A DNA stretch of 64,000 bases, from IMG/VR virus record IMGVR_UViG_3300015259_000001; one strand, 5' to 3'. The position numbers were made by a program, and so were the translations under genes. Origin of the DNA: a virus. Shown here in pieces: positions 7,386-59,381 of this stretch (the stretch's first letter is position 1; the number at the start of each line of letters is the position of its first letter). Under the pieces are notes generated by a model. That model was not told the DNA's origin, searched no databases, and was given only the letters and a program-made list of their open reading frames with translations.

Positions 7386-7407
7386 CATGGAAAAGGGAAG
7401 ATAGATA

Positions 7408-7602
7408 ATGAAATCTATAGGACATTCTTTTGGTATCCTAAAAGGTTATAAATCAGGAAATCCTGAAGAAGCTAAGCAATTTATTGGAAATATGCATCCT
7501 GCTGAAGTACGAGAACGAAGTAGGCAGGAGTCACAGAATAAGAATAAACTTAGAAAAAAAGCTTTAAGGGTAGGTACAATGCCTAGAAGATGGGATAAAT
7601 AA
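7408..7602 (+). CDS. Small basic hypothetical protein
   Basis: 64 aa, coupled to next ORF. Confidence 0.55.
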   Translation: MKSIGHSFGILKGYKSGNPEEAKQFIGNMHPAEVRERSRQESQNKNKLRKKALRVGTMPRRWDK

Positions 7603-13219: not shown

Positions 13220-14431
13220 ATGACTAATTTCCAGACATTGGGCGATATGCTTCTACGACGTTATGTCGTAGACTTCATCGCTCAGGCACAGCAGCTATCG
13301 ACGCCGATTTATTCGATGCTGCGGGAAAACACGCGCTTCCAGCCTTCGGGTGATGGTGCGTACTTCCCAATCCGCATCGACGGTAATGAGGCCGGTGGCG
13401 GATGGCGCGGGACTGATGATAACGCGCTTCCTACTAGCTCAAATGAACGCATCAAGCAGCACAGAGTACGCCCAAAGAAGTACTACCATGTAGTAGAATT
13501 CTCGGGTCTCGCTGAGGCTGTATCCGCTCGTGGCGGCGAAGATGCATTCGCAGCCGGTATTACTGACGCACTTTCTGCGGCAGTAAAGCGTGCCGGTGCT
13601 AACTTCGAGGTTACGTTCCTTCGTGGTGATGGTACTGGCCGTCTAACTAACGTTAACGGCACTCAGGCCAGCGTAAGCACTCTTGACGTAGATGATGCTA
13701 GACCTTTCCGCGTAGGTCAGGTTGTTGTTTTCCTAAGCAACAGCACTGGTTTAAAGCAGGCTGGTCCAGTTACCGTAACATCTAGATCGGTTGCAAACGG
13801 TACCATTTCGGTATCGAGTGCAGTATCCGTAACGGATAATGACGGTATCTACATTTCCGGTGAGCAGAGCGAGTCTGCACCTCCGACCGAGGTAACGGCT
13901 CTTGGTCTACCAGCCATTGTAAACAATACTGGTACGATCTATAACCTCAGCCGAACAACTTACCCAATCCTTCAGTCGAAGGTTATTGCGGCAAGCTCAA
14001 CGGCTTTGGATGAGTCGCTCCTTAGACGGCTCCGCAAGCAGCTATTGACTGAAACCGATGTTGGTTCAATGGACGGGTTCGCCCTCATTTCCAACTGGGA
14101 TCAGTTTGATCGCTACACGGAAATCGCTCTTCCATTCAGACGCTTCAATGATATGAAGCTAGAACTTGGTGCCGAGCAGTCGGTAACTACGTTTGAGGGT
14201 CGCCCTTGGTACATTTCTTGGGCTGCTCTACCTGATGAGGTCTTCATGATCCGAATGGACGCAATCGAGCGCGGCGTCGTAAGGCCCCTTTCGATTGATG
14301 AGCGCGTAAACATGGCATGGGTACCCGGTACTGACTCATTCACCGTACTCCTCAAGATGTACGCTGAGAACGTAGCCAGAATCGTTAACCAGACGGCTAA
14401 GATTACGGGCCTAACGACTCCTACGTACTAA
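13220..14431 (+). CDS. Major capsid protein (HK97 fold inferred)
   Basis: 403 aa after scaffold, followed by a strong terminator; more C-ending codons than neighbours; FLRGDGTGRL. Confidence 0.85.
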   Translation: MTNFQTLGDMLLRRYVVDFIAQAQQLSTPIYSMLRENTRFQPSGDGAYFPIRIDGNEAGGGWRGTDDNALPTSSNERIKQHRVRPKKYYHVVEFSGLAEAVSARGGEDAFAAGITDALSAAVKRAGANFEVTFLRGDGTGRLTNVNGTQASVSTLDVDDARPFRVGQVVVFLSNSTGLKQAGPVTVTSRSVANGTISVSSAVSVTDNDGIYISGEQSESAPPTEVTALGLPAIVNNTGTIYNLSRTTYPILQSKVIAASSTALDESLLRRLRKQLLTETDVGSMDGFALISNWDQFDRYTEIALPFRRFNDMKLELGAEQSVTTFEGRPWYISWAALPDEVFMIRMDAIERGVVRPLSIDERVNMAWVPGTDSFTVLLKMYAENVARIVNQTAKITGLTTPTY

Positions 14432-17980: not shown

Positions 17981-19009
17981 ATGGATATTCTAGTAACAGG
18001 GGCAGCCGGACTAGTAGGTTTTAACGCTTGTAAGTATTTCCAGCAGCAAGGTCATAACGTTTTAGGGATAGATAATCTAGAGAGATCTTCTCTTCTTGGA
18101 CACAAAGTATCTGAGGATAGGAAGCTATTTAATGTCCACGCTCTAGAACGCCTTGGGATCTCTTGTTTACGCTGGGACGTGTCGAATGCTGACATATGGG
18201 AAGATCTTCCGGCTATGGACGCTGTAGTGCATCTAGCAGGGCAATGCGGAGTACCTACCTCTATTGCTAACCCCCGCCGAGATTTCGAAATAAACACTAT
18301 TGGTACATTTAATGCTTTAGAGTTCGCTAGGACCTTTGGTGCTAGATTTGTATATGCCTCTACAAATAAGGTTTATCCGATCCATGGAGGATGGCATCTA
18401 GAGGATAGACGATGGCGGTGGACCAATCCCGGTAGGCATCAATCTGGCTTTCCTGTTATGGCTATGGATCAAAGCGGCAGAACGCCCTATGGAGCGTCCA
18501 AATACGCCGGGGACGTACTTGTACAGGAGTACGGTGATATCTTTGGCCTACGGACAGCCTGCTTCCGAATGAGTTGTATTTATGGTCAGAACCAGATGGG
18601 GTTCGAGGAACAAGGGTGGTTGACCCACTTTATTATATCTACCCTTAAGGGAGAACCTATTACAATATACGGAGACGGGATGCAAGTACGAGACTGTCTC
18701 TACGTAGATGATTTAATCAAAGCTTACGAAGCATTTTTAATCAATGATAAGATTAAATCTAATGTTTTTAATATCGGAGGTGGACCAGAATATACATTAT
18801 CTCTTCTAGAATGTATTGATCTTATCGAGAAGTATACGGGTAAGAAAAGTCCCATTAACTTTCAGGATTGGCGACCATCGGATCAAAGGGTATATACTTC
18901 ATCATTTTTTAAAGCAAAATTAGAATTAGGATGGCAACCGACAGTATCTCCAGAGGAAGGAATTAAAAAGGTTCTGGAATGGGTAGAGCCTAATATTAAC
19001 ATATTTTAG
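17981..19009 (+). CDS. NAD-dependent nucleotide-sugar epimerase, CDP-paratose/tyvelose 2-epimerase-like
   Basis: TGAAGLVG, HLAGQ, STNKVY, YGASK, FRMSCIYG, EEQGW. Confidence 0.85.
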   Translation: MDILVTGAAGLVGFNACKYFQQQGHNVLGIDNLERSSLLGHKVSEDRKLFNVHALERLGISCLRWDVSNADIWEDLPAMDAVVHLAGQCGVPTSIANPRRDFEINTIGTFNALEFARTFGARFVYASTNKVYPIHGGWHLEDRRWRWTNPGRHQSGFPVMAMDQSGRTPYGASKYAGDVLVQEYGDIFGLRTACFRMSCIYGQNQMGFEEQGWLTHFIISTLKGEPITIYGDGMQVRDCLYVDDLIKAYEAFLINDKIKSNVFNIGGGPEYTLSLLECIDLIEKYTGKKSPINFQDWRPSDQRVYTSSFFKAKLELGWQPTVSPEEGIKKVLEWVEPNINIF

Positions 19010-36135: not shown

Positions 36136-36401
36136 TGAAGAAACTAATATTGGTAGCAGTAGCTGTAATGCTGCTAAGTGGGACCGCTTCCGGACAGAAC
36201 GACACTCCACCTGTAACGTGCGAGTACGCAAGAGAAGTCAAGCAGCTATCAGCATACCAGCTTAATAAGCTGGATATGGCAATCGGAAAAACGGCCCCGT
36301 TCTCTGCTCCTAGAGAAGTTCTATCGGCTCAAGCTCTTGGTATTCTACAATTGTTGGATGTCGTTGAGAGTTGGGAAGAGAGGAACTGCCGAAAGCACTA
36401 A
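36135..36401 (+). CDS. Secreted/periplasmic protein with signal peptide
   Basis: MKKLILVAVAVMLLSGTASG signal; two Cys. Confidence 0.6.
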   Translation: MKKLILVAVAVMLLSGTASGQNDTPPVTCEYAREVKQLSAYQLNKLDMAIGKTAPFSAPREVLSAQALGILQLLDVVESWEERNCRKH

Positions 36402-37174
36402 GGTAGAGGTCGATCAAACGCTATACCGTGCCCACGAACCTCTGGCCTATCGAAGATATGCCAGTCTAAGCCTTCATTTGTAAGATGTTGTCGCAGTGTT
36501 TTATGGGGATCCAACCATTTATACCATGCTTGCTTATGTGTCTCTTCGGTGATATCCCACTGTTCCATCTGTAAACAGATATTAACTATATTAGGATAAA
36601 TATTAGAATATTTATCCATATCTTCTGAAGAACCATAAGCAAACCAGTCCGATAAATCATACTTTAAATTATGTAGAAAGATTGTATTATTTTTCTGTCG
36701 TAATGGAGAATGATTAATTTCCCACCCTCTATCTATGCGAGCCCGAATAACTATATCGTATATTTGACCTATTCGCCTCTCATGTACTTTCTTTAATTCA
36801 TTGCATTTCCAGATCATGTAGAATAAATTCAACATATTCTGGCGACCCCAACTTGTTTTAAACTTTTTCTCCTCTGGATATCCTTTACGAAAGTTCTCCC
36901 ACCTTGTCTTACGCGGGTATTCGTCCATAAACTTATCCGTAAGTTCTGTTCGTGGGGGATCGCCTACAAGTTTCTGGTATTCGGTATAGTATAGAATTGG
37001 GTTATATACGCTTATAGCGCGCTTGTGCTCTGATTCCCAACATGTAGTATAATCATTTTCCCAACAAGCCACAAATACATCAGGCTGAAATTTATCTAAG
37101 ATTCCAACCTTTGTTGTATTATAGTACTGATCAAGATTATGACTAAGGCCGCTCAGACAAAGCGCAACTCGCAT
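36398..37174 (-). CDS. Glycosyltransferase-like protein (MRVALCLSG family)
   Basis: VALCLSG, DVFVACW, YDIVIRARID, SDWFAYGS. Confidence 0.55.
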   Translation of the reverse strand: MRVALCLSGLSHNLDQYYNTTKVGILDKFQPDVFVACWENDYTTCWESEHKRAISVYNPILYYTEYQKLVGDPPRTELTDKFMDEYPRKTRWENFRKGYPEEKKFKTSWGRQNMLNLFYMIWKCNELKKVHERRIGQIYDIVIRARIDRGWEINHSPLRQKNNTIFLHNLKYDLSDWFAYGSSEDMDKYSNIYPNIVNICLQMEQWDITEETHKQAWYKWLDPHKTLRQHLTNEGLDWHIFDRPEVRGHGIAFDRPLP

Positions 37175-37347
37175 TACTCTTCTTCTTCATCTAGTTGATT
37201 TTCTTCAGGTTCATTAGCGTCCTCCTCTGGGGGGACAGGCTCAAAGGTTTCTTCATCTGAAGAAAAGGGGATAGAGGACCGGCAGCTAGTACAGGCCAAT
37301 CCGTAGGTAGTCCATCGTCCACATCGACATCGCATTAACTGATTCAT
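37174..37347 (-). CDS. 57-aa zinc-finger microprotein with acidic tail
   Basis: Hand translation MNQLMRCRCGRWTTYGLACTSCRSSIPFSSDEETFEPVPPEEDANEPEENQLDEEEE. Confidence 0.6.
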   Translation of the reverse strand: MNQLMRCRCGRWTTYGLACTSCRSSIPFSSDEETFEPVPPEEDANEPEENQLDEEEE

Positions 37348-38102
37348 AGTGTGCCATTCTTATGCCAATCCTCTAGTACCGGGTTAACCGGATAAGATTT
37401 AATTCTTGTTTTTAAAATTGGCAATTCGTCTAGTAGGTTTATTTCTGTTTCTTCTCCCCTAAGATAAGTTGGCTTTTTCTTCCGGTCTAATCGACCATGA
37501 GTTTTAGCGTCCATAGGTGATCTCAAGGCTCCATGTAAATGCCAGCAGATGGCACCCTTTGGTAGCCACATCTGATTGCCCGGTCTGCCTTCATATATCT
37601 GATATTCATTAGGATGAGGGCCACCGAAAATTGCAGTTCTATGATAAAGTCTATGATGAGGTACCCTATCGTGTACCCCATATGCAGTCTTTAGGTTTGC
37701 TTGAACCTCTATTCTAGGTACCATTCCGTATAATAGTCCAGTTTCTTCGTAATACTGATAAAGATTATCGGCATATCCTACAATAGTATTAAGGGATTCA
37801 TTGGTGTAGATCTCGTCCCCATCCACCATAAAGTACCATTCGCTTCGAGCCTCAGCAATCATGGAGTTACGGAAAGCACCCTGTACAACAGGTGGACAAT
37901 CTGGCATCATTCGGACAAAGAACTCTGAATCTTTTCTTTCGCTCTGAACGAAGTTGTCTATAATCTCTCTTGTTCCGTCCGTACTGCCTACATCATAGAT
38001 AACATATCTAGAAAAATGATCACGAAGACTTTCAAGAACATAGGGTAACCAATACGCTTCATTCTTGACTAGTATCGTAGGAACTAGTTTATCCGTTTTC
38101 AT
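37344..38102 (-). CDS. GT2 family glycosyltransferase
   Basis: ILVKNEAYWL, IYDVGSTDGT, FMVDGDE (DxD). Confidence 0.85.
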   Translation of the reverse strand: MKTDKLVPTILVKNEAYWLPYVLESLRDHFSRYVIYDVGSTDGTREIIDNFVQSERKDSEFFVRMMPDCPPVVQGAFRNSMIAEARSEWYFMVDGDEIYTNESLNTIVGYADNLYQYYEETGLLYGMVPRIEVQANLKTAYGVHDRVPHHRLYHRTAIFGGPHPNEYQIYEGRPGNQMWLPKGAICWHLHGALRSPMDAKTHGRLDRKKKPTYLRGEETEINLLDELPILKTRIKSYPVNPVLEDWHKNGTL

Positions 38103-38725
38103 TATAGATATCTCTGCACGAAGTTTAGATTAACCTCATTAACATCATCAACTTTTATGACATTCGCCCCTGTAGCATGTGCGGCTACGATACCATTTTC
38201 ATTATCCTCTAGAATTAACGTTTCCTCTGGATAAGATCTAATATTGATCATAGCTTTAATATAACCTTCAGGATGAGGCTTATTAAATCTCACGCTATCG
38301 TTAGTAATAATAGTAGAGAAAAAATGGCTTGGAGATTCAGATAACGTCAACTTACGAAGCATCTCCATTGCAGTTCCTTTACTGCAATTGGTTACTACCC
38401 CCAAGATATACTTTTTCTTTAGTTCCATAACCATTCTAATCTTATCTGAGTTATAGAGATTAGCAGTAATTATTTCATCAAAAGTATATCTCTGCTTAAC
38501 TTGATAAATCTTATCTAATTGGTTATCTAATACGCGCTTCTGTTTTATTAAGAGCGATAATTTAGTCTTCGTAGGAAGACCATTGAACTTCAAATCGTGC
38601 TCTGAGTGGTCTATCTCAAACCCACAAGTCTCTCTAAGAGCACGGTTAAGAGCCCGGTAATGAATCTCCGTAGCATCTACCAACACTCCATCCAAATCAA
38701 ATAGAATTGCACGTATTGAGGACAT
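38102..38725 (-). CDS. HAD-superfamily phosphatase (beta-PGM-like); start reassigned to ATG 38725
   Basis: ILFDLDGVLVD, KPHPEGY, ILEDNENG. Confidence 0.9.
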   Translation of the reverse strand: MSSIRAILFDLDGVLVDATEIHYRALNRALRETCGFEIDHSEHDLKFNGLPTKTKLSLLIKQKRVLDNQLDKIYQVKQRYTFDEIITANLYNSDKIRMVMELKKKYILGVVTNCSKGTAMEMLRKLTLSESPSHFFSTIITNDSVRFNKPHPEGYIKAMINIRSYPEETLILEDNENGIVAAHATGANVIKVDDVNEVNLNFVQRYL

Positions 38726-38726
38726 T

Positions 38727-39746
38727 TTACTTCCGTACTGCCATTTCATCATGATAAGATCTAGTAACCTCTACGAACTCAGCTTTTCGCTGTAGCTCTG
38801 TAATGTTTCTCGCGCCTCCGTACGTAAATCCGGATCTAATTCCACCACATAAGGTATCAATTAGTTTCTTCGCAGATCCGCTTATAGGAGCCCAAAATGA
38901 TTCACCTTCAGGAACAGTACCTGACTTTAATTCTCCAAAATAATCTTTTTGAAAGTCCTCACTAGCCTGTCCACGATATTTAGCTTCAAATAAAAGACCA
39001 TTATCTAAGACAGTCGTCCCTACAATCTGACGTTTTTCTGCTGCAGATTCGGCGGTCAGAGCAAACAGCTTGCCGATCATAACCGTAGAAGCGCCTGCAG
39101 CTAACGCTAGGACGATATCTCGGCTATCCCTGATACCACCATCGGCTATGATAGGAATACGTAGCTTCTGGCCCATCCTAGCGCATTCCTGTATAGCTGT
39201 GAACTGTGGTACTCCGAAGCCTGTGACTGATCTAGTCGTGCAGGCTGCTCCGGGACCTATACCAACTTTTACCGCATCAGCACCAGCATTGTAAAGATCC
39301 ATTACTGCTTGTGCTGTGCAAACATTACCTGCAATAACTTGAGAATCAGGGTTCATAATCTTAAACTGACGGATAGCGTATACCATCTTTTCGCAGTGTC
39401 CGTGAGCCACATCAAAACAAACATTCACTACTTTGCCAAAAGAGTTAGCTTTTTCTAAATCATCGTATCCTAGTCCAAAGGATAGAAAACATTGAGAATA
39501 TTCTGTAGCCCAAAACTCTTGCTGTTTAATATCGCAAAACCGATGAAATATAGGTAGAGATCCATAACTAACCATTACGTCTGCAAGTTTATCCCCAATT
39601 ACAGTATCCATATTGGCAGCTACAATAGGTATACTTATTTTAATCTTTTTAGTTAACCAAGAGTCTAGAGTAGGCTCAGTTCTTGATTCGATGTTGTTAT
39701 ATTGAGGTACTAAGGCTACATCATCGAATGTTAGTGCGCGATTCAT
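38727..39746 (-). CDS. IMPDH/GMP reductase family (no CBS domain)
   Basis: [43 protein letters not shown]. Confidence 0.9.
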
Positions 39747-39973
39747 TATTCATCACTCTCATACTGTATAGCATCTTGTATGCTGTCTATTATAGCAAAT
39801 TCCCGTTTAACGAGAACACCTGTTAAACATTCTCTACATGGAGATTCCTCATAGGAAGCATGTTTATAATGTGGGCACATAAGTATATCTTCACCTTTCA
39901 CAGGAAAAGGATACTTTTTCCGCCATTCTCTATCGAACTCATGTATAACATCTCTAAGGTGTTTGATCTTCAT
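39746..39973 (-). CDS. Small hypothetical protein
   Basis: 75 aa, CPH...CxxC. Confidence 0.5.
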   Translation of the reverse strand: MKIKHLRDVIHEFDREWRKKYPFPVKGEDILMCPHYKHASYEESPCRECLTGVLVKREFAIIDSIQDAIQYESDE

Positions 39974-40896
39974 GATACAACCTCTAGTATCTGTTGAACT
40001 CTGTGTTTTATTAGATGTTTATTTATAACTTCTTCGTACGCTAGCTTTGCCATAAGTATAGCATCTGTTGGCTTATTTACAACCCATTTCATTGCTTCCT
40101 CAAGATCACTATAGTCTACATTATAAGGAACATAATGTTTTTCTGCCTCGAATAATAAATCCATACCAGAGTCTACATCTCTATCGCAAACTAATGGGGC
40201 TCCGTTAGCCATACTTTCAAAAATCCGTAAATTAATATCGTGCTTCTGACCTTTATTGAAAAGGTTACGACAGCGGCTCATAGCTATACCAGTCATAGGC
40301 CACTTAGGTTTATAAGTTTTAGCTAGTTGACGAACATCGTAAGTCCAGCTATGCTTTTTGCATATCTCTATCATAGGGTGTGCTCTATCCAGACCGAACT
40401 TACTACCGAAAAAGCCGAAGTCGAATTCAAATTCGGTAGACATAGCTTTGGACCTATCACTTCCAAACCATTCAAGGTCGGTCGCATTAGGGGACCAGTG
40501 GGCAGATTTATGTTTAGCGAATATATCTCTACGACTGTACACTGCAAAGAATACATGGCTATAGTAAGGTGCTAACCTATGGTGAAGACTTGCTTGTCCA
40601 TGACTGTCAGTAAAAATCACAGCCGTAGGAATAGCCCACTTTGGGCCTTTAGTTACAAAGCAATGTCCAATGAAGGGTAAATTACCATCGGGATTTCGAC
40701 CATTGTCTATATCAAGTACCAGATCCCATTGATTAAGATTAATAGTATGTAGCTGATCTAGTGATACATCTTGGTTCTCGCCTAGCGTAAGGACATCATG
40801 GCCCAGTGCTTTAAACTCTCTAACATAACTATTAGCATAGCAGGGAACCTCTATACCGTTATGCAGATCTTTTCTGTATGAGACTATAAGTTTCAT
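39970..40896 (-). CDS. GT-B glycosyltransferase (CgeB/Glyco_trans_1_2-like)
   Basis: INLRIFESMANGAPLV, HYVPY, KHLIKHRVQQIL. Confidence 0.8.
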   Translation of the reverse strand: MKLIVSYRKDLHNGIEVPCYANSYVREFKALGHDVLTLGENQDVSLDQLHTINLNQWDLVLDIDNGRNPDGNLPFIGHCFVTKGPKWAIPTAVIFTDSHGQASLHHRLAPYYSHVFFAVYSRRDIFAKHKSAHWSPNATDLEWFGSDRSKAMSTEFEFDFGFFGSKFGLDRAHPMIEICKKHSWTYDVRQLAKTYKPKWPMTGIAMSRCRNLFNKGQKHDINLRIFESMANGAPLVCDRDVDSGMDLLFEAEKHYVPYNVDYSDLEEAMKWVVNKPTDAILMAKLAYEEVINKHLIKHRVQQILEVVS

Positions 40897-41051
40897 TAAT
40901 TACATCGAGGTTTTTTAGAGCACTTTTTGTCTTCTAACTCCAACAGTCTTCTATCAAATTCTACTAAAATCTGCTGTAGCATCGCTACACCTTCCGATCT
41001 TGTAGCAGTTGGCCATAGATCTATTAACTCTTGAAGCTCTTCTCTAGTCAT
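40896..41051 (-). CDS. 51-aa hypothetical protein
   Basis: Hand translation; fills the gap with overlaps at both ends. Confidence 0.5.
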   Translation of the reverse strand: MTREELQELIDLWPTATRSEGVAMLQQILVEFDRRLLELEDKKCSKKPRCN

Positions 41052-41791
41052 GGCATCTCCAAAGGAATATATATCTGACCACTAGCATTTACTTTCTTCA
41101 ATACATTTCTATTTCGCTTTAGTTCTTCCTTGGTGCGAGACTTCTCGAAGTTCCAACGCCCGCCCTCAGTATCCCCCTTCTGGATAAACATATCTCGGGC
41201 TTCTTTAATATCTACATATTTAAGAGGATGACCGATTAATCCTGCCCTATTAATTCTATCCGTCCATTGTCCATGAGCGTATCCCATTCCTACGAATTCA
41301 GGATGTAACGCGCCCACCTGTCTAATAACTTCGGCGGTTATAAAGGTTAGATCTCCTCTAGGAGAAGAAGCATATACTGGTGTAAGTTTAAGGTTTTCCT
41401 GCATCCAAATAGTAAATTCATTATGAGATTCAGTGATCTCTTTGTCTTGAACCCGGCAGAAATGATTAATACCGGAGTGAATAGCTGCTCGTTCATAAGT
41501 TTCAAACCATCCTTTAGATGTCGGGAAAAGATCATCTTCAAGAAGACAGATGAAATGACAGTCCTGTAAAAGGTATAGGGCTCTATTCTTATTGGCAGCT
41601 ACTCCAAGATTAGGACCACGTACATAAGTTATATCGAATTTCCTAGCTACTTCAGCCGTAAAATCAGTGCTACCATCATCACATAGTATAATTTTTGCGT
41701 CCTTGGGAGCGGTATCTATAACGGATTGAATAAACTCCCGTAGGTAATTACTACGATTGTAGGTTAGAAGTCCTATTCCTCTAGCTATCAC
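41048..41791 (-). CDS. GT2 family glycosyltransferase
   Basis: LLTYNR, CDDGSTD, NLGVAANKN, LLEDD, GMGYAH. Confidence 0.85.
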   Translation of the reverse strand: MIARGIGLLTYNRSNYLREFIQSVIDTAPKDAKIILCDDGSTDFTAEVARKFDITYVRGPNLGVAANKNRALYLLQDCHFICLLEDDLFPTSKGWFETYERAAIHSGINHFCRVQDKEITESHNEFTIWMQENLKLTPVYASSPRGDLTFITAEVIRQVGALHPEFVGMGYAHGQWTDRINRAGLIGHPLKYVDIKEARDMFIQKGDTEGGRWNFEKSRTKEELKRNRNVLKKVNASGQIYIPLEMP

Positions 41792-41918
41792 GAAACGTAT
41801 CCTTAATGCTATTAATATTTTCTACTATTAGTTCAAATATAAAAGATAATAAACAAAATCCGAATGCCATCCCAACTGCCCAAGCCATTATTACTGCAGT
41901 TGTCTCTAAGATCCACAT
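41781..41918 (-). CDS. 45-aa membrane microprotein
   Basis: Hand translation MWILETTAVIMAWAVGMAFGFCLLSFIFELIV... Confidence 0.45.
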   Translation of the reverse strand: MWILETTAVIMAWAVGMAFGFCLLSFIFELIVENINSIKDTFRDS

Positions 41919-44900
41919 AATTCCTCCACAACTCGCTCAAGCGAGTCTATACATTCTGTGGAATCTACGTATCTTTCTGCGGTGCGATAACCTTCGAAAC
42001 CTAGTCTAACCATCTTAGATGGCTCAATAATAAGACTATCAATCGACGAAAAGATCATATCAGGTCTAGATATAGGTACTAATAAGCAATTCTTTTCATG
42101 CTCTGTAAATTCAGTATGAACGTCAGTTAGTACACAAGCAACACAAGCACTCATTGCTTCTAGTGCCATTCTTCCTAAACCTTCAGTATGGCTTACGCCA
42201 ACCCAGATATCTGTGTTCTTAAATAGATCTGCCATGTGTTGTCTAGATAGGGACTCATGGTATTTAATCCATGGAGGCATAAGTAGTTTATCTTTAGGAT
42301 ATTCTCCTACCCCCTCGATCTTGACCATATCTCCAAACTTTTCCTTAATCTTAGTTAAAGCTTGGATAGCATCACCGCTACCCTTTAATGGGTACTGGTG
42401 AATGAGAGTACATATTCTAACTGGTCCGTCTACTCTCCCAGTTCGATAAACTTTCTGTGATGGGATAGTCTGAAATACCTCATGTCCGTAATGAAACCAA
42501 CCAATCCGAGTAGCATCTGATGGTTTATTGTTCCATGTCGGAAGAGGATTTCGACATACATTAGCTAACCATTCTGTACTAGTAATGATCTTATCCCACT
42601 TAATATTTAGACTCTTCTCCTCATACTCCTTAAACCTTTCATTGTGAGAAAGCTTGAGCATGATTTTCTTCTTCGCTTGGGGCAGTTCGGAGAAGTAATC
42701 ATTAAGTGGGTTATCAGAGTTGACAATTAGAACATCGCACTCGGGTATATCCTTATGCTCTAAGCTAATTGGCAGATCTGTAAATCCTAGTACTTCAGGA
42801 GTGACATCAGCGTATACAGATGTAATAGATACATCATGTCCGCGATCTGCCAGACCATTTGCTAAAGTTAAGATAGTAGTAGGGCCACCATGTTTTCTCA
42901 TATGGGGGGTAACAAATACGATACGGCGCTTAGTCTGGCGAAGGTGAAGATTCTTCTCTAGCGCTTCAATAAAAGTATTTACCGAATTATCTCTATCGTG
43001 TTCCTCAAGACTTTCTAAAGCGGATTTTTGTAATTTAGCTCGCTGTTCAGGATTCTGCAATAGAGCTATAACTGAATCAGCAACCTCAATAGGAGGCATA
43101 CTATTCGGTAGTTTTAACCCATTCTTACCGTGTCTAACATACTCTCCAATACCCTTATTATCCCAACAAATTACTGGGACACCAGAAGCCATAGCCTCAA
43201 GACAAGGCATTCCGTATGAGTGAATATAGGAGGGGTCAATAAATACATCGACTTCATTCCTTAGGAGGTTAGCAAGACGGGTCTGAGATATTGGTCCTAA
43301 AGCGATAGCTGTACCGCAAACTTCAGGAATAGAGTCAACACCATAAGTCATTATTCTGGTATTAAGCCCTGCTTTGACGCTCTTATTGTACAAGTATTGA
43401 ATAAGCTGGATAGCTCTGTCATATCCTTTGAAAGGATAAGAAGCGGAAATAGGAACCATAACTGTAACCCGATCATCTCCTGATTCTCTATTCCCGGGAT
43501 AAAATAGTTTCCTATCTACGCCCGGAGCAACGGTTGATACGACATTAACTCCATCCTCGATTAGCTTCTTAGTAATCCAATGCGAGCTAGATATAACTTG
43601 AGGAGCCAGTTTAAAGAATCGTTTAAATTCCTCAGCAGTCGTAGAATCAGCGCCGACTAGATCAGGCTCATAAGACTGTGTGTGTAGGACGTGTTTGAGC
43701 TTTTTCTCTACTTCACACAAACTGCTTACAAGAGGAGCTAATTCAGAAGTTGAAGAAATGATTACTCCATTTTTAAACACCTTAGAAGTAAAGGTTTTTA
43801 AGAACTCTTCTTCGCTGGCGAAGTTAATAACACCAGTCCGTAGTTCACCAAGTGGTTCTGGTAGCTTAGCTCTGATATCTCTAGCTACAACCGCTACTCT
43901 AGCGTCACCGCCACGTTCATTAATCTCGTTAACAATATCTGTAATAAACTTCATTCCACCACAGAAGGCTGCGGATCTAACTACCCAACATACTCTGTAG
44001 GGTACCTTTCGACTGGAATTTAGGATAGAAGAAGAAATATCATTCTTTATGTGTCCTAAACTTTTATCAATATGAAATGTTTTTTTCCACTGGGTAAATT
44101 GAGGCCATATTCGGTTAAACCGATTAGCAGCGTGCTTTCGGAAACCCATATGTTTTTCTTCTCCAAGGCTGGAGAACGAGCTACCTCTCTCATGAAATAC
44201 GTAAGTATCATCTGCCATTACCGCTCTGTATCCCTTTACCGTAGGACCACGACGATAGGTAATCGTCTTCATCCAATGGTCACTCTCTTCTCCAAAGTTC
44301 GGGTATGACTCATCGAAGGGACCAATTTCGGACAGAAGAGATCGTCTGAACATATAGCAAAATCCGGTAGGCATTATCTCGGGATACTTAACATCACCCC
44401 TATTCTGTAGTATCCTATTCATATCTAGATATGAAGCTCCGGGAGACATATTTACGTTAATTACTGCCGTATTATTAGTAACGGGATTAACTATCTGATT
44501 CCTAGAATTAGCTTCAAGAGCAAATACCAGTTTTGTTAACCAGTCTTGAGTAACTAATACGTCTGAATTAAGAAGACATACATACTTACCGCGCCCGATA
44601 GTAATGCCCCTATTAACAGAGGCAGCAAACCCTTTATTCTTAGCATTCGTAACGAGTATAATCTTATCGGGATGTTTTTCGTATAAGTCTTTTAATACTT
44701 CTTTAGTTTTATAGTCTGATGCATCATCTACGATAATTAACTTATAAGGCCATCGGGTCCTAGATAGAACTGTTTTGATAGCTTTATCTGCAATATGAAT
44801 AGAATTATATACAGGCATAACTATATCAACTGGATATCGTTCTTTAGATGCGACATTTATAGCCGCGTTGTATAGTGTCTCTTTGCTATTTTGAAAGAAA

Positions 44901-45082
44901 TTATCTTTAGGTAATAAGGTAGATATTGCAGAGGCAAGTTGCCCCTGTAATTCTCCGGTCATTGGAACTTCTACTTCATCAGTAGATTTGGGATTGATTA
45001 AGTCATCAACCCTTCTAGCTACCTCGTCAGAAGTGGGGGCTACCCATACATAGGTATTATCAGACTGACGATGGAATGACAC
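41906..45082 (-). CDS. Three-module glycosyltransferase GT2-GT4-GT4
   Basis: VDIVMPVYN/VDDAS/LLNSD; GGMKFI...YGMPCLEAMASG; GGPTTI...EGLGRMALEAMS. Confidence 0.9.
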   Translation of the reverse strand: MSFHRQSDNTYVWVAPTSDEVARRVDDLINPKSTDEVEVPMTGELQGQLASAISTLLPKDNFFQNSKETLYNAAINVASKERYPVDIVMPVYNSIHIADKAIKTVLSRTRWPYKLIIVDDASDYKTKEVLKDLYEKHPDKIILVTNAKNKGFAASVNRGITIGRGKYVCLLNSDVLVTQDWLTKLVFALEANSRNQIVNPVTNNTAVINVNMSPGASYLDMNRILQNRGDVKYPEIMPTGFCYMFRRSLLSEIGPFDESYPNFGEESDHWMKTITYRRGPTVKGYRAVMADDTYVFHERGSSFSSLGEEKHMGFRKHAANRFNRIWPQFTQWKKTFHIDKSLGHIKNDISSSILNSSRKVPYRVCWVVRSAAFCGGMKFITDIVNEINERGGDARVAVVARDIRAKLPEPLGELRTGVINFASEEEFLKTFTSKVFKNGVIISSTSELAPLVSSLCEVEKKLKHVLHTQSYEPDLVGADSTTAEEFKRFFKLAPQVISSSHWITKKLIEDGVNVVSTVAPGVDRKLFYPGNRESGDDRVTVMVPISASYPFKGYDRAIQLIQYLYNKSVKAGLNTRIMTYGVDSIPEVCGTAIALGPISQTRLANLLRNEVDVFIDPSYIHSYGMPCLEAMASGVPVICWDNKGIGEYVRHGKNGLKLPNSMPPIEVADSVIALLQNPEQRAKLQKSALESLEEHDRDNSVNTFIEALEKNLHLRQTKRRIVFVTPHMRKHGGPTTILTLANGLADRGHDVSITSVYADVTPEVLGFTDLPISLEHKDIPECDVLIVNSDNPLNDYFSELPQAKKKIMLKLSHNERFKEYEEKSLNIKWDKIITSTEWLANVCRNPLPTWNNKPSDATRIGWFHYGHEVFQTIPSQKVYRTGRVDGPVRICTLIHQYPLKGSGDAIQALTKIKEKFGDMVKIEGVGEYPKDKLLMPPWIKYHESLSRQHMADLFKNTDIWVGVSHTEGLGRMALEAMSACVACVLTDVHTEFTEHEKNCLLVPISRPDMIFSSIDSLIIEPSKMVRLGFEGYRTAERYVDSTECIDSLERVVEELCGS

Positions 45083-45623
45083 TGGAATTCTTTCCCAAGA
45101 TAATAGAATCTATTACCAAGAATACAGAAGGTAATTCTCCTGTTTTAGCTATAATATCGTATTCAAACGAATAGTTATCTAGTGAGCTTTCGCTGCTATG
45201 CGTATCCGCAGATACCATATCTGATCTTTTCATCCTAATTATTTTACCACCTAGACTTTCAATAGCTTTTACTTCGTTAGGAAATCTGGTATCACTAATA
45301 ACTACATTATTACCTTTAGCTATCTCTTCTTTAATGGTTTCAAACCCTATACGAACCCAAAAATCATCCATAAAGTTTGTTCGAAAAAGATCAGTACCTA
45401 CCACCTGTAGAACTTCTCTAGGGGACATTTCCCATCTAGGATCTACTATTTCTTTCTCAATAGGATCATACATTTGTGCATGTGTAAAACGAAATAGTAG
45501 TTTACCTATTATTTCTTTAAGTGGGTATGCCCAAGATACCTCTACGAATCCGTGCTTCTCAACTAAGTAGGTCGCTACACTGGACTTACCAGAGAGCTTC
45601 TTACCTGACAATGATATAATCAT
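45060..45623 (-). CDS. Deoxynucleoside monophosphate kinase
   Basis: ISLSGKKLSGKS, SPREVLQVVGTD, ISDTRFPNE, HSSE. Confidence 0.9.
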   Translation of the reverse strand: MIISLSGKKLSGKSSVATYLVEKHGFVEVSWAYPLKEIIGKLLFRFTHAQMYDPIEKEIVDPRWEMSPREVLQVVGTDLFRTNFMDDFWVRIGFETIKEEIAKGNNVVISDTRFPNEVKAIESLGGKIIRMKRSDMVSADTHSSESSLDNYSFEYDIIAKTGELPSVFLVIDSIILGKNSSVIPSSV

Positions 45624-45973
45624 TATATCTTACCATCAAGAACATTCAATGCCGTATTAGCATCCTTTCGGTGACCCTCATCACATGCATAATCGAAATT
45701 ACAAACAAAGTTGGAAGCCCATTCTGGAAGAGTCCTTACTGCCTTATAAAGTGTACTAGAGAAGTGGGAGATATCTAATAGTTCTGGGTAGTGCGAATAA
45801 GAACTCCCGTCTACAGCGTACCCTGTAGCATCCGCTAGAGGACAGTTAATAGAATCACACTTATACGTTTTTCCACCGTTCCAAATCGTTTTGACCAGAT
45901 AGGCACGAAACTCAGACTTCTTAATAAATGGTCCCGGTTTTTCTATATTTAACTTTTTCATGGTGTCTCCCAT
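45623..45973 (-). CDS. Hypothetical protein, tandem paralog 2
   Basis: NCPLADATGYAVDGSSYSHY...TLPEWA. Confidence 0.7.
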   Translation of the reverse strand: MGDTMKKLNIEKPGPFIKKSEFRAYLVKTIWNGGKTYKCDSINCPLADATGYAVDGSSYSHYPELLDISHFSSTLYKAVRTLPEWASNFVCNFDYACDEGHRKDANTALNVLDGKI

Positions 45974-46350
45974 TCTCCTGTTTCGTCATTACGTCTAATT
46001 TTATTATCTATAATAAGCAATGCAGTCTTCGCATTCTTTGGAAATACTTTACCACTATAGAAAGCATCTCCAGTTACTGCATCAAATACGGTAACAAACT
46101 TTTGAGCCCAGTCCGGAAGTGTTTTAACTATTCCTTTTAAATAAATACTATGATGATTTTCTAGTAGCTCAGAATAATGAGAATATGAGATTCCATCTGT
46201 AGCGTAACCTGTAGCTATAGCTAATGGACAGTTTTCAAGTGTACATTTATATGTTTCGTTTGTCTTAATAGCCTTCAATAGAAATTGTCTAAACATATAT
46301 TTAGAAATAAACTTACCAACTGGTGAAATATCATTCTTAAGTCTTCTCAC
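45958..46350 (-). CDS. Hypothetical protein, tandem paralog 1
   Basis: NCPLAIATGYATDGISYSHY...TLPDWA. Confidence 0.7.
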   Translation of the reverse strand: MRRLKNDISPVGKFISKYMFRQFLLKAIKTNETYKCTLENCPLAIATGYATDGISYSHYSELLENHHSIYLKGIVKTLPDWAQKFVTVFDAVTGDAFYSGKVFPKNAKTALLIIDNKIRRNDETGEWETP

Positions 46351-47689
46351 GATACTGCTCCGTGTTTAAGTGAAATTTTAAGTCTGGGTACTTATACGAC
46401 AATAACAGTATAGCATATTTTCGCAATTTTTCCGCTTCTTCCTTAGAGTCACACACAGGTAAATAGATTGTAGGACGCCATTTACCTGATTCTTTATGGA
46501 CGCCAGATTTAGTAGAATTTCTTACATTTTGTATAATAGTACATGCTCGCAAATTATTCAAGTTGTTATTTAACTTATCATGATCAATATGATCTACAAC
46601 ATAACCAGATTTAATTGGTCCATTAAATGCTTCCCATACAACTCTAGATACTTGCTTCCAATAGTATCTACCTGAATTAGATAACCCCACCTGATAATAT
46701 CCACTATTAGATAGTTTAAACTTAATAGACTGTCCGGGGATAGTCCTTCCTTTATTGTCTTTTCTAGTTAAAGACCGTATTCGTCCAAAAGAACTAGCTT
46801 CATATTGCTCTTCGAACCCTAATACCGGACCCCACATTTCAACATCATTTAGTCCACTTACTGCCCGTCCTTTTAATAGTAACCAATCCATTTCGGGTCT
46901 TACTTCTAGATTTTTAATCCATGACCCAACACTAGTAGCTGGATATACACCATTATGGACAGAAAAGTCTAAGTAGGCAGATAAGTCTTTCGGAAAACAC
47001 GACCCAGAAAAACCATATTTACCGTCCGTACCGGGGACTAAAAAGTGCGAACGTCCTATTCTCCCATCATTCAAGATTTCAGCTATAACTCGTTTAGAAT
47101 TAACTCCAATAGCTTCGCAGATCTGGTGTAGCTCATTAAAGTAAGCTAACTTATTGCAAAAAAAAACATTAGTCCCATATTTAACTAAAGCAGCTTCATC
47201 CCATGTCATCCATACTATAGGAACAGCAGGAAATCTAGTATTGAATAAATCTTCTAAAATTCTATGGCTAGAAAAGTTATCGGATGTACCAAGAATTATC
47301 CGACTTTGTTGAATAAAATCAAGATCAGCAGTTTTTTCTGTTAGGAACTCCGGCGAATGTATTACTATTAGATTTCTGTGTTTTGCATTCAACTTTCTCG
47401 CGCTTCCGGGAGGTATAGTGCTTTTTATGATAACAATCTTTACATCATCCTCCGGCAAGGTACGTGATAAATCACTTAAAGCGCTATCTAAAATAGATAG
47501 ATCTACTGATCCGTCAGCCTTCATTGGGGTAGGTAAACAAATAAATAGTATATCTTGATTAACTACGTCAGCGTATTTAAACCCCATATCCTTGAATTTG
47601 TCATAGATCTTTACATTTGTATAGGTATGGAATGCTTTGCATACGGCGGTCCCTACGAAACCCGCGCCGATTATACCTACTGAGTACAT
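46337..47689 (-). CDS. ugd: UDP-glucose/GDP-mannose dehydrogenase fused in frame to a NUMOD4-HNH endonuclease; start reassigned to ATG 47689
   Basis: GAGFVG, ICLPTP, IKSTIPPG, SPEFL, GFSGSCFPKD; then YEASSFGRIRS...VVDHIDHDKLNNNLNNL after about 46855. Confidence 0.85.
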   Translation of the reverse strand: MYSVGIIGAGFVGTAVCKAFHTYTNVKIYDKFKDMGFKYADVVNQDILFICLPTPMKADGSVDLSILDSALSDLSRTLPEDDVKIVIIKSTIPPGSARKLNAKHRNLIVIHSPEFLTEKTADLDFIQQSRIILGTSDNFSSHRILEDLFNTRFPAVPIVWMTWDEAALVKYGTNVFFCNKLAYFNELHQICEAIGVNSKRVIAEILNDGRIGRSHFLVPGTDGKYGFSGSCFPKDLSAYLDFSVHNGVYPATSVGSWIKNLEVRPEMDWLLLKGRAVSGLNDVEMWGPVLGFEEQYEASSFGRIRSLTRKDNKGRTIPGQSIKFKLSNSGYYQVGLSNSGRYYWKQVSRVVWEAFNGPIKSGYVVDHIDHDKLNNNLNNLRACTIIQNVRNSTKSGVHKESGKWRPTIYLPVCDSKEEAEKLRKYAILLLSYKYPDLKFHLNTEQYREKT

Positions 47690-48321
47690 ATACTTCTCCA
47701 TTCCAATGCATCCGATATAGTTGGAAACTCCTCAGTAAAGATATTTTTTATCTCTAAGGCTATTTCTCTATGTTCTTTTTGGGTGTGGGGGTCAGTACGA
47801 AGCTCTATATAATGAATCCAAGATCTTAAACTACCTTTCATGTATATCGTAGTTTGAGTAGTTAATGGCAGTACCATTCTTGCTGTCTCTTTGGATACAC
47901 CATTAGCGATTAGCTGGTCATAGGTATATCGGGCAAGAGATACCGTAATAGCAATCATTTTATTTAGAGTATCATCTTTAAGTACAGCCTCGGAAGACTG
48001 TCTATTATTTTTAGCCTGTCTACGAAGCTCTACTGGTTCAAAATTCGTAGGAGAACTATAGCGTTGTGAGAACTCTTGGAATGAAAAGCTTCTATGACGT
48101 AGAATCTGGGCTGCTATAGCTCTACTAGTTTGGATCTCTACGGTCATATCGACCATTTCAAACGGCGACCAATGCTTATTTTTGATCAAGTATTTTAATA
48201 GTTTAGGTGCCGTTTCAGTATTCATCTGATTATCTGGATTGCTTACCCGAGCAATATAAGCCACCAGATCCTCAGTCCGTGAAAGAAAAGATTTAGTGGT
48301 GGATATGATTCTGACGTTCAC
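47677..48321 (-). CDS. thyX: Flavin-dependent thymidylate synthase
   Basis: HWSPFE, RHRSFSFQEFSQRY, ARMVLP, QKEHR. Confidence 0.95.
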   Translation of the reverse strand: MNVRIISTTKSFLSRTEDLVAYIARVSNPDNQMNTETAPKLLKYLIKNKHWSPFEMVDMTVEIQTSRAIAAQILRHRSFSFQEFSQRYSSPTNFEPVELRRQAKNNRQSSEAVLKDDTLNKMIAITVSLARYTYDQLIANGVSKETARMVLPLTTQTTIYMKGSLRSWIHYIELRTDPHTQKEHREIALEIKNIFTEEFPTISDALEWRSICTQ

Positions 48322-50834: not shown

Positions 50835-51518
50835 TTAGTCACGGAAAAACTCTGGTTCTATATCCATAGCTTTTGCCCAAGAACCATGCTTAACTGCTAC
50901 TATTACTCGCTTTAACCTTATTCCCCTACTCCACCAATGGGTTGAAATTTCCTTATGTCCACCCTCAATATTTCGGGAATTAGATATAGCATCTAAAGAA
51001 CGGCCATCCATGAGATGTCTACAAATACCGTCTCTGCCTTCCATTTTATTATCAAATTCAGAAACAACTTCTAAACCTAATCGCGCAGCCGCCTCTCTCA
51101 TACGATCAGCCTGTGCTGTTAGCTCATTAAACTTTTCTTCGATGTGATACTCTCTCAAAGGATATCGACCGGCACCCTTAGGAGTATACCAAATATTCGG
51201 TCGAGATTCAAGATGTTTTACCATCCAATTAATCGCCTTATCAAGATCAGAGAAACAATCGTTAACAGATCGCCGCTGATAATCAATCTCGTGATGGAAA
51301 CCATGAAGTTCGGCGATCATTCTACCGGCCTTAACTTCTTCCTTGACGTACTCAATACACTGAGGAAACTGTTGAATCTCCTCCGTGAGAATAGCTGGAA
51401 CATGTACGAAGTGCTCCGGCACTTCTGCGATCCAACGGTGTATCTGTCTAAATCGTTTAAACGGATCAGGCCATTCTCTAGAAGGAACTAGAATATCATC
51501 GTCTCTAACTCTTATCAT
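50835..51518 (-). CDS. Polysaccharide deacetylase-like (CE4/NodB fold) protein
   Basis: IRVRDDD, HVPAI, ELHGFHH, YTP. Confidence 0.6.
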   Translation of the reverse strand: MIRVRDDDILVPSREWPDPFKRFRQIHRWIAEVPEHFVHVPAILTEEIQQFPQCIEYVKEEVKAGRMIAELHGFHHEIDYQRRSVNDCFSDLDKAINWMVKHLESRPNIWYTPKGAGRYPLREYHIEEKFNELTAQADRMREAAARLGLEVVSEFDNKMEGRDGICRHLMDGRSLDAISNSRNIEGGHKEISTHWWSRGIRLKRVIVAVKHGSWAKAMDIEPEFFRD

Positions 51519-58522: not shown

Positions 58523-58786
58523 TTAGAACGATACTACGCGCTGCGGTGAAACCACTTCGTCAGTAGTAACGGAACCATCTGTAGGGAATAGAGTGTTGCT
58601 TACTACGGCCTTTTCGCTAGTGCGAGGTCGGCCACGAGGGCGTACTACTACTCCTGTACTTGCGATCAAACGTCGAACCGTCTGAGAATTAGCACCAAAC
58701 TTAACTCCAATACTCTTTAGCGATTCCCCTGCCTCATATAGAGATACCATTTCATTTACTTGCCCATCAAACTTCGACTGTCGCAT
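58523..58786 (-). CDS. HTH DNA-binding protein with AT-hook-like motif
   Basis: LYEAGESLKSIGVKFGANSQTVRRLI; RPRGRPR. Confidence 0.7.
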   Translation of the reverse strand: MRQSKFDGQVNEMVSLYEAGESLKSIGVKFGANSQTVRRLIASTGVVVRPRGRPRTSEKAVVSNTLFPTDGSVTTDEVVSPQRVVSF

Positions 58787-59381
58787 GATTATACTCCTTA
58801 GTTATTGTTAATTTACCAATTCTTCGTTCTGTTTCTATTACTTCAAACTCAAAACCTTTTGAATTCTTACTTGTCAATCTGCCCCAAAATTTACGGGGAC
58901 CTTTCTCATTCAGATCATGAAATATCACACAATCCCCCGGTATCAAAAAAGTCTTAATCGCATTCCAATCATTGATGACCGATTCCCTCTTATGATCACC
59001 GTCGATAAAGAATATAGCATTTTTTCGAGAGATTGCAAATTTTTCGAGTTGAGCTATAACTCCCACATTAAACGGCTGTATATGTATATTAATTTTATCA
59101 GGAAGAGGAGACATATCTATATGCTCCCAAATCTTGGGGCGACAAACAATATCAAAGGTATAAACTTCTGCTCCTGCTGCGGACAAAATACAACCACTAA
59201 AACCATGAGCCGTCCCGCTCTCGAAAGCTAGGGAGAACCCCCTAGCGTTCGAGAACAGAACATCAGCTTCCTTATCTGTAATAAACCGAGCTACTTTAAA
59301 CTTATCCAAAGGAAGCTTAAGCCTACTTAATTTAACCTTATTAAGCACTAGGTGGCTCTGGAATCTCAGGAGCCGGAACAA
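58767..59381 (-). CDS. Class I SAM methyltransferase (Methyltransf_24-like)
   Basis: FESGTAHGFS, FFIDGDH, VIFHD. Confidence 0.75.
   Translation of the reverse strand: MFRLLRFQSHLVLNKVKLSRLKLPLDKFKVARFITDKEADVLFSNARGFSLAFESGTAHGFSGCILSAAGAEVYTFDIVCRPKIWEHIDMSPLPDKINIHIQPFNVGVIAQLEKFAISRKNAIFFIDGDHKRESVINDWNAIKTFLIPGDCVIFHDLNEKGPRKFWGRLTSKNSKGFEFEVIETERRIGKLTITKEYNHATVEV

Follow-up and report, generated by a model that had tools for sequence, protein, structure and literature searches.

Phage glycosyltransferases (GTs) are usually read as DNA-modifying enzymes, as serotype-converting morons or, in mycobacteriophages, as virion decorators. The chlorovirus PBCV-1 glycosylates its capsid autonomously by means of multi-domain virus GTs and virus-encoded sugar-nucleotide enzymes. 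Virion glycosylation of the mycobacteriophages Che8, Corndog, and Myrna, with glycans on C-terminal parts of capsid and tail-tube subunits, is described in PMC12363180 and PMC12619734 (the three phages after Freeman et al. 2023, as cited there), and PMC12619734 counts four GT orthogroups among the core orthogroups examined in moraphages. Both mycobacteriophage virion glycosylation and the presence of several GTs in large aquatic phages have been described before. Here, we analyzed a 64,000-nucleotide stretch (the window) comprising bases 29356-93355 of the 121,061-bp IMG/VR virus record IMGVR_UViG_3300015259_000001, which was rated complete by CheckV and originated from freshwater sediment. 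Its minus strand carries a GT cluster (36398-47701), four co-linear genes of which encode six GT domains. The novelty lies in the combination of three features: this fixed block of four genes, a three-domain GT that is specific to viruses and appears to host inteins, and the lack of any known DNA-glycosylation route. We tentatively propose that the four genes constitute a core, virus-specific module for cytoplasmic glycan assembly in phages of ~120 kb, with a conserved acceptor that is most likely a virion protein.

The cluster was annotated using Pfam, PHROGs, and NCBIfam; every NCBIfam match fell below its curated cut-off, so only superfamily-level enzyme names are justified. The four genes encode a 1058-aa GT2-GT4-GT4 protein, two GT2-family enzymes (GT2a and GT2b), and a CgeB-like compact GT-B. 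A profile-guided scan recovered 52 viral loci, on which downstream genes were counted wherever the flank reached 5 kb or more (24 loci) and upstream genes wherever it reached 4 kb or more (33 loci). GT2a, the GT-B, GT2b, and a convergent ~1100-aa late gene were each found in 24/24 loci, and all core genes were intact full-length open reading frames (ORFs) in the relatives. The block was always located at the 3' end of the replication/nucleotide-metabolism arm, convergent with the late gene, and its synteny was kept in L002-L005, L010, and L011. Synonymous sites of the core genes were saturated, with a proportion of synonymous differences (pS) of 0.78-0.85 vs a proportion of nonsynonymous differences (pN) of 0.13-0.30; for the 1058-aa GT compared with L002, these values were 0.82 and 0.134, respectively. 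In 28 sequences of the large GT sharing 41-79% identity, motif residues of all three domains were invariant (D120/S122, N172-S173-D174, E629, and E967...E975). All six GT domains have kept their family motifs under strong purifying selection. An earlier reading of the window, made from the sequence alone (the original prediction), had listed two GT2 genes, a CgeB-like GT-B, the GT2-GT4-GT4 gene, a further GT-like gene, and a haloacid dehalogenase (HAD) phosphatase; these assignments were borne out by Pfam, phrog_13607, and fold comparison, with PF13419 for the HAD gene, and the co-occurrence in relatives that it suggested as a check was observed for the core GTs.

Homologs of the 1058-aa GT formed at least 387 clusters. 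The best 120 were essentially full-length, with 41-79% identity, and most of these measured 1038-1076 aa, a few reaching ~1405-1466 aa owing to an insert. Many homologs were carried on contigs of 110-130 kb and, our own contig aside, all contigs of at least 100 kb that bore the major capsid protein (MCP) were also in the list of GT homologs (3/3). No useful cultured relative was found among 50,697 phage records, either by megablast of the 12-kb cluster or by tblastn of the terminase, the MCP, and the 1058-aa GT. Across 185,579 prokaryotic species, each represented by one genome, the sole full-length match was located on a 119.6-kb whole-phage contig within a Deltaproteobacteria metagenome-assembled genome (MAG). 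Nearly all other matches covered the GT2 domain only, at 22-38% identity, and a few extended further; the most extensive was a 1754-aa multi-GT protein of a Desulfobacteraceae MAG (L095), spanning all three domains at 23% identity. The three-domain GT has no full-length cellular counterpart in this set and is virus-specific. The original prediction had named decaying host captures as the case that would overturn it, and the 24/24 synteny, the intact ORFs, the excess of pS over pN, and the lack of a cellular ortholog indicate that the genes are not of that kind. As to the host, a Deltaproteobacteria MAG contained one lineage member, and a second homolog carried the label Halobacteriota; such binning is unreliable as host evidence.

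Inserts of ~390 aa occurred at one common site in five diverged GT homologs (locus L004, 7607-8772, and proteins P0009, P0018, P0058, P0113, and P0124), positioned within the invariant GEESD motif of the GT2 domain, between GEE and SD. Four of the five inserts showed LAGLIDADG or Hom_end Pfam matches, and the C-terminus of the P0009 insert read ...KN, followed by Ser. We read these intein-like inserts as inteins. An intein at an invariant motif is typical of conserved genes that are important to the phage, and in our experience an intein in a glycosyltransferase is unusual.

The domain limits of the 1058-aa protein were ~85-330 for GT2, ~330-720 for the first GT4, and ~720-1058 for the second. 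The best PDB sequence match of the GT2 domain was the K4 chondroitin polymerase 2z86. GT2 domains invert and GT4 domains retain, so the core could form up to three beta and three alpha linkages. Under the proposed mechanism, the soluble GT2 (inverting) and GT4 (retaining) transferases would act sequentially on host-made nucleoside diphosphate (NDP)-sugars, and the supply of these would be topped up in most members by an epimerase/dehydratase of the short-chain dehydrogenase/reductase (SDR) family; in this phage, a short UDP-glucose dehydrogenase (UGDH)-like enzyme, the HAD protein, and a nucleotidyltransferase might add to it. The sugar chain so made, carried by a single conserved acceptor, would be either a short polymer or an oligosaccharide with about six residues at most. 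The AlphaFold2 model of the CgeB-like protein (pLDDT 90.2) showed a compact yet complete GT-B, whose Foldseek neighbours were retaining GT4 enzymes (MshA, BshA, PimA, HepE, sucrose-phosphate synthase, and Bacillus subtilis YkvP). The hit lists of the proven DNA arabinosyltransferases of RB69 and DLP3 are headed by the same PDB entries (PMC13326640 Table 1); the fold therefore cannot assign the acceptor, and an assignment on this basis was rejected, all neighbours being generic GT4 enzymes common to DNA GTs. The isoelectric point of the GT domains, tried as a proxy for DNA binding, was uninformative. The features of the window are collected in Table 1.

Table 1. Genes and other features of the window discussed in the text (window coordinates)
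Feature	Position	Strand	Evidence	Status
GT2-GT4-GT4 three-domain glycosyltransferase, 1058 aa	41906..45082	-	PF00535, PF00534, PF13692, all above cut-off	core gene
GT2a (GT2 family)	41048..41791	-	PF00535 59.5 bits; phrog_2456 1.5e-30	core gene
CgeB-like compact GT-B (GT4-like)	39970..40896	-	PF13524 56.3 bits	core gene
GT2b (GT2 family)	37344..38102	-	PF00535 39.8 bits (cut-off 23.3); PF13704 29.6 bits	core gene
Short UDP-glucose/GDP-mannose-dehydrogenase-like protein fused in frame to NUMOD4+HNH_3	46337..47701	-	Pfam	accessory
NUMOD4-HNH part at 3' end of the UGDH-like gene	46337-46860			
DUF7796/phrog_13607 protein	36398..37174	-	phrog_13607 3.3e-14	accessory
HAD-IA hydrolase (beta-phosphoglucomutase/sugar-phosphatase-like)	38102..38752	-	PF13419 94.8 bits; NCBIfam all below cut-off	accessory
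IMPDH/GMP-reductase-family protein, no CBS domain	38727..39746	-	PF00478 284 bits	variable neighbour
75-aa ORF	between IMPDH-like gene (38727-39746) and CgeB-like gene (39970-40896)			
dNMP kinase	45060..45623	-	PF21448 76.7 bits	neighbour; membership of glycan system only putative
Two tandem small paralogs, 116 and 130 aa	45623-46350	-	47% identical; no family match	
NAD-dependent nucleotide-sugar epimerase/dehydratase (SDR)	17981..19009	+	PF01370 160 bits; phrog_540	
Methyltransf_24/CmcI-like SAM methyltransferase	58767..59381	-	PF13578 41.1 bits, PF04989 28.3 bits, both above cut-off	accessory
227-aa ORF, putative CE4/DUF2334-like fold	50835..51518	-	no Pfam or PHROG match	accessory
Major capsid protein (MCP)	13220-14431			
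Short tyrosine recombinase/phage-integrase-family gene, 273 aa	1653-2474			

The strongest, though indirect, pointer to the acceptor is evolutionary and comes from the distribution of the block. Lineage members ranged in GC from 0.32 to 0.60, and the ~1100-aa late gene, a fast-evolving, presumed fibre gene without family match, showed 22-41% identity where the GTs showed 38-56%. The profiles of GC and avoided restriction sites (see below) indicate different hosts, yet the GT core is constant in gene content, order, and architecture. Because this core is shared despite the variation in GC, fibres, and avoided sites, the acceptor is most likely phage-intrinsic, such as a virion protein. For a common acceptor, a strain-specific host glycan is unlikely, and a phage protein or a universal host intermediate (an undecaprenyl-linked primer) fits better. 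We regard a virion protein or other phage-intrinsic molecule as a plausible acceptor, with something short of an even chance. That the lineage glycosylates its own virion or a phage-made macromolecule with a roughly hexasaccharide glycan, using wholly virus-specific cytoplasmic enzymes as a core trait, is possible but doubtful.

Several observations weigh against a virion acceptor. The original prediction had pointed to a Thr-rich MCP tail and to small S/T-rich paralogs, and neither candidate withstood inspection. The MCP C-terminus reads ...NQTAKITGLTTPTY, and the proposed tail consists of eight residues, TGLTTPTY. The 116 MCP homologs, at 74-97% identity, did not vary in length beyond 402-405 aa and shared the end NQTAKITGLT[T/V]PTY, the second Thr of the terminus often being V, I, or L; judged from this alignment, the end is a conserved fixed-length terminus, not a low-complexity S/T extension. 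The MCP lacks an S/T-rich extension of the mycobacteriophage kind, and the three small late-arm paralogs had an S+T content of only 12-23%. No structural protein was conspicuous in a scan of all ORFs for S/T-rich acceptors, and no acceptor, including a tail-tube acceptor, was found in the genome. Moreover, the block is placed in the replication arm, and the late motif described below was not found in the GT cluster. RNA libraries of such sediment samples yielded small, low-depth contigs of 100% identity over the cluster, for which DNA carry-over is possible. Finally, soluble GT2 and GT4 enzymes could equally use undecaprenyl-linked host intermediates and host exporters, and the fold neighbours shared by the GT-B and the proven DNA arabinosyltransferases are compatible with DNA.

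Asn-linked acceptor sites were also considered. Three MCP sequons, N174-x-[T/S] (middle residue T, S, A, G, or V), N242-[L/I]-S, and N390-Q-[T/S], were kept in 111-115 of the 116 homologs, which, at a mean column identity of 0.85, is only a hint that they may be functional. No N-glycosyltransferase (NGT)- or oligosaccharyltransferase (OST)-type enzyme was found among the ORFs scanned.

We then examined signals of expression. The TGNTATACTAT motif occurred in seven plus-strand copies (window 2491-27276) in the late arm, which is oriented rightward, to ~36.4 kb, and in one minus-strand copy at genome position 118522; the replication and nucleotide-metabolism arm is oriented leftward. Since the GT block contains no TGNTATACTAT, it is probably expressed together with the replication genes. 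Expression of this kind would fit either virion-decorating enzymes that are made in advance or early envelope remodelling. Extended -10 sites of the form TGCTATAAT were located at 17868, before tRNA-Asn, and at 39789, inside the 75-aa ORF upstream of the IMP dehydrogenase (IMPDH)-like gene. A generic scan for sigma-70 promoters and terminators performed no better than on shuffled sequences. The genome encodes two sigma-70-family proteins.

If the acceptor were a conserved host lipid intermediate, the enzymes would remodel the host envelope: on the cytoplasmic side of the membrane, the GTs would extend a lipid-linked intermediate, e.g., undecaprenyl-PP-GlcNAc, and a host ABC transporter or Wzx together with a ligase would export it. 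The effect might be to block superinfection, to prevent progeny from re-adsorbing to debris, or to sequester the lipid carrier. Sub-threshold NCBIfam matches of the GT2 and GT4 domains were mostly to enzymes of exopolysaccharide, lipopolysaccharide, and teichuronic acid; PDB neighbours included the K4 chondroitin polymerase, WaaG, and PimA, and Swiss-Prot structural neighbours included O-antigen mannosyltransferase C and WclY. The nearest cellular analogue, the giant multi-GT protein of L095, belongs to a polysaccharide-like locus, the position of the block in the replication arm without the late motif is compatible with such a role, and similar GT sets of cyanophages have been so interpreted (PMC12801897). 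However, surface glycans are strain-specific, whereas the GT architecture was invariant across the range of GC and the highly divergent fibres, and the three-domain GT has no cellular ortholog. In a genome-wide scan, hydrophobic segments numbered at most two per ORF and were lacking in the GTs; because no multi-pass membrane protein is encoded, the genome lacks a flippase, a polymerase, a priming transferase, and a membrane synthase, as the original prediction had noted for the flippase and polymerase, and likewise no transporter or ligase was found. The hallmarks of Gtr-type O-antigen conversion (GtrA flippase, membrane-anchored GtrB, and a GtrC with multiple transmembrane segments) were absent, and GtrB-like phrog_841 matches were weak and limited to the N-terminal GT2 core. 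Two complete relatives have direct terminal repeats, which suggest, without proving, a lytic style, in which serotype conversion would be unusual. Taken together, we consider envelope remodelling unlikely.

DNA is a further candidate acceptor. In this case, the GTs would decorate a modified base, as in T-even phages, RB69/DLP3, and the metavirome clusters for glycans on 5-hydroxymethylcytosine (5hmC), and thereby evade nucleases. Upstream of the GT cluster lie genes for ThyX, a ferritin-like protein, tRNA-Met, and ribonucleotide reductase (RNR), and the gene order RNR-ThyX-(UGDH-like)-dNMP kinase-GT block places the GTs among nucleotide kinase and nucleotide-metabolism genes, resembling the layout of kinase, thymidylate-synthase homolog, GT, and HAD genes published for proven clusters (PMC13326640 Table 1). 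Multi-sugar DNA glycans are known (bioRxiv 10.1101/2023.12.21.572611), the GT-B shares its fold neighbours with DNA arabinosyltransferases, and inteins and homing endonucleases gather here as they do in DNA-metabolism genes. The known phage DNA glycans start from a hydroxyl, supplied by a ThyA-family enzyme as 5hmC, 5-hydroxymethyluracil, or 5-hydroxycytosine (5hoC) (PMC13326640), or by a 5mYOX/TET dioxygenase, alone or together with a C5 methyltransferase (bioRxiv 10.1101/2023.12.21.572611). Searches of the 121-kb genome for ThyA (PF00303), TET/JBP (PF12851), and C5 methyltransferase (PF00145) gave no match at E<=10, and PF00303 and PF12851 were also absent from five relatives (two complete and three partial). 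The ThyX protein, with its intact RHR motif and a match to 2cfa at 2e-60, is by these features a canonical flavin-dependent dTMP synthase.

Restriction-site usage was also at odds with DNA glycosylation. CCAGG/CCTGG was absent from the whole genome, vs ~107 (Markov) or 118 (zero-order) copies expected, and so were AGGCCT, ATCGAT, CACGTG, CAGCTG, CCGCGG, CGATCG, CTCGAG, GGGCCC, and GTCGAC, for each of which 3-24 copies were expected. In the relatives, CCWGG counts were normal, and each avoided its own, different set of palindromes. Fully hypermodified DNA resists restriction (PMC13326640). Judged indirectly, from the sequences, member-specific site avoidance in a lineage that uniformly carries the GTs implies that Type II enzymes still threaten its DNA; this points to continuing host-specific Type II selection and to a GT core that does not shield DNA. 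Because a known route to an acceptor base is missing and site avoidance is strong, DNA glycosylation is disfavoured, and we consider it highly unlikely. The original prediction had favoured cytoplasmic glycosylation of the virion or of DNA; a functional cytoplasmic multi-GT system agrees with our results, the virion part is what we infer from the shared core, and the DNA option lost ground.

Alternatively, what the enzymes make or modify may be soluble but of a different kind. They might synthesize an oligo- or polysaccharide that stays free in the cytoplasm, glycosylate a small molecule, or modify a conserved host protein for takeover or counter-defence. GT4 neighbours included MshA, BshA, sucrose-phosphate synthase, and tetrahydrobiopterin glucosyltransferase, and a HAD phosphatase adjoins the GTs in the closest relatives, as in solute pathways that pair a GT with a phosphatase; however, the HAD gene was found in just 1/24 related loci. 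In L011, a gene of the Acb2/Tad1-hairpin type (anti-CBASS/Thoeris sponge-like; 9231-9443) adjoins the dNMP kinase at the block. A faint match to PF20706, "GT4 in conflict systems", would be in keeping with counter-defence, but it covered only the generic GT4 C-terminal motif. Six conserved GT domains would be excessive for modifying a small molecule or a single protein site, and we judge such a product or target distinctly unlikely.

Next, we focused on the gene that the original prediction had called a UDP-glucose dehydrogenase. Its ORF comprises N-terminal and central dehydrogenase domains (~1-282; PF03721 71.6 bits and PF00984 55.8 bits), in which GAGFVG (GxGxxG) and the catalytic GSCFPKD were present, followed by a NUMOD4+HNH_3 homing endonuclease (~288-454). 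The protein aligned to solved UGDHs (e.g., 3vtf) over their residues ~95-307 only. Neither the ORF nor the rest of the genome contained the UDP-sugar-binding C-domain (PF03720), the same search being positive in 14/14 control genomes, and for this reason we do not file the protein as a UGDH; of the earlier assignment, the first two domains stand. Orthologs in L004, L048, and L055 have 280-300 aa without HNH, which indicates that the family is natively short and that the HNH part was inserted secondarily, in frame. The gene was found in 3/33 loci. Rfam was searched for a group I intron or other RNA family where the UGDH and HNH parts meet; its matches were limited to two tRNAs.

Inteins and homing elements abound in the lineage. 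Free-standing HNH genes were located inside the GT block in nine of the related loci examined, and in one relative an HNH gene directly followed the large GT. An SDR epimerase gene (G005:C1:1973-4090) was interrupted by an in-frame insertion of ~1 kb, and ribonucleotide reductase was interrupted by insertions of ~1 kb in L005 (7082-8055) and L011 (5597-8560; in frame, with a faint LAGLIDADG match). Other genes within the block were that for peptide deformylase in seven relatives (L011, L048, L049, L051, L052, L053, and L055) and that for an HpcH/HpaI aldolase in one.

The remaining companion genes varied among relatives. The DUF7796-type protein belongs to a virus-only family (atlas feature score of 0.97-0.98 to DUF7796 clusters), has GT-A-like structural neighbours fused to Sulfotransfer_2, GT92, or GT32 domains, and was encoded in 0/24 related loci. 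Three features of the cluster had been overlooked in the original prediction, namely the IMPDH-like gene, the dNMP kinase gene, and the pair of small paralogs. The IMPDH-like protein, encoded in 9/24 related loci, retains the Cys loop GPGAACTTR, but Asp replaces the Arg of the IMPDH Arg-Tyr dyad; the protein probably belongs to GMP-reductase-like nucleotide metabolism rather than sugar chemistry. A dNMP kinase gene was located upstream of the large GT in 6/33 loci by tblastn. The two tandem paralogs, placed between the UGDH-HNH ORF and the dNMP kinase gene, share the motif YKC...NCPLA.ATGYA.DG.SYSHY, and L002 has one copy.

For sugar supply and tailoring, the original prediction had envisaged a phage that builds a uronic-acid-containing, methylated, or sulfated glycan, a claim that rests on accessory or unconfirmed genes. 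Its CDP-sugar epimerase is an NAD-dependent epimerase/dehydratase, whose best sub-threshold NCBIfam matches were to dTDP-glucose 4,6-dehydratase and GalE rather than to CDP-sugar epimerases; this SDR gene lies in the late arm, downstream of tRNA-Asn, and was found in 4/5 related records at 52-55% identity. Of three S-adenosylmethionine (SAM) methyltransferases claimed, the CmcI-like protein scored above the Pfam cut-offs and is a candidate sugar O-methyltransferase, with weak homologs in 2/5 relatives, whereas ORFs 61662 and 62271 scored below. The supposed CE4-like deacetylase at 50835 gave an atlas lead to a viral Polysacc_deac_1 cluster (feature score 0.94 with 162 shared features, below the usual same-family level), and a homolog was found in L004 only. 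A sulfotransferase-like gene was not recovered: a genome-wide search with PF13469 and PF00685 was negative at E<=10, PF03567 not being searched directly. Outside the window, the same genome codes for an NTP_transferase, which was found in 0/5 relatives, a fifth GT, of the GT2 type, and a further pair of small methyltransferases. The genes of the UGDH-like, HAD, and DUF7796 proteins and of the nucleotidyltransferase are accessory and rare in the lineage.

Two observations concern other parts of the genome. A short tyrosine recombinase gene near the left end of the window may serve integration or dimer resolution. A family of at least 10 paralogous small proteins (~70-125 aa) is encoded in the right arm (genome 101407-118601), with two further copies in the left arm (6985-7573).

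With its four genes and six domains, the GT block belongs to the core of an abundant, uncultured phage lineage, and it can be tested by heterologous expression without culturing a host. Should a virion protein prove to be the acceptor, glycosylation of virions would reach well beyond actinobacteriophages, and the block would represent a compact, soluble, host-independent assembly line for glycans with possible use in glyco-engineering. If it is a conserved host lipid intermediate, a probably lytic phage would practise a new kind of envelope takeover.

Among described systems, bacterial multi-domain polymerising GTs of ABC-transporter-dependent polysaccharide pathways (e.g., WbdA-type and 2z86) likewise fuse GT modules in one soluble polypeptide; unlike these, the present locus has no transporter, primer, or terminator genes, and its GT2-GT4-GT4 protein has no cellular ortholog. 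Clusters for DNA glycans (T-even glucosyl-5hmC, RB69/DLP3 arabinosyl-5hoC, and the methyltransferase/5mYOX type) resemble it in combining GT-A and GT-B enzymes with similar fold neighbours and in adjoining nucleotide kinase, thymidylate synthase, HAD, and nucleotidyltransferase genes, but the ThyA homolog or 5mYOX that forms their acceptor is absent here, and restriction sites are strongly avoided.

Mycobacteriophage virion glycosylation is similar in employing soluble phage GTs in the cytoplasm without export machinery, and a phage-intrinsic acceptor is favoured here as well. It differs in that the MCP of the present phage has a fixed, conserved eight-residue end, that no mycobacteriophage match to the 1058-aa GT appeared in the tblastn search of phage records, and that the present system, known from its genes alone, has six GT domains, including a virus-specific three-domain enzyme. 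PBCV-1 resembles the present phage in having virus-specific multi-domain GTs, cytoplasmic assembly (proposed here), nucleotide-sugar enzymes, methyltransferases, and a closely related ThyX, the top PDB match 2cfa being, we presume, the PBCV-1 enzyme; here, however, the virus is bacterial and the sugar-supply genes are mostly accessory. Self-glycosylation with a roughly hexasaccharide glycan, if true, would be the bacterial-virus counterpart of autonomous chlorovirus glycosylation. Cyanophages and moraphages (PMC12801897; PMC12619734) are, like this lineage, large aquatic phages with several GTs, NDP-sugar epimerases, and an unassigned acceptor. They belong to another lineage and size class, whereas the phages described here carry their GTs as one fixed syntenic block with a three-domain enzyme.

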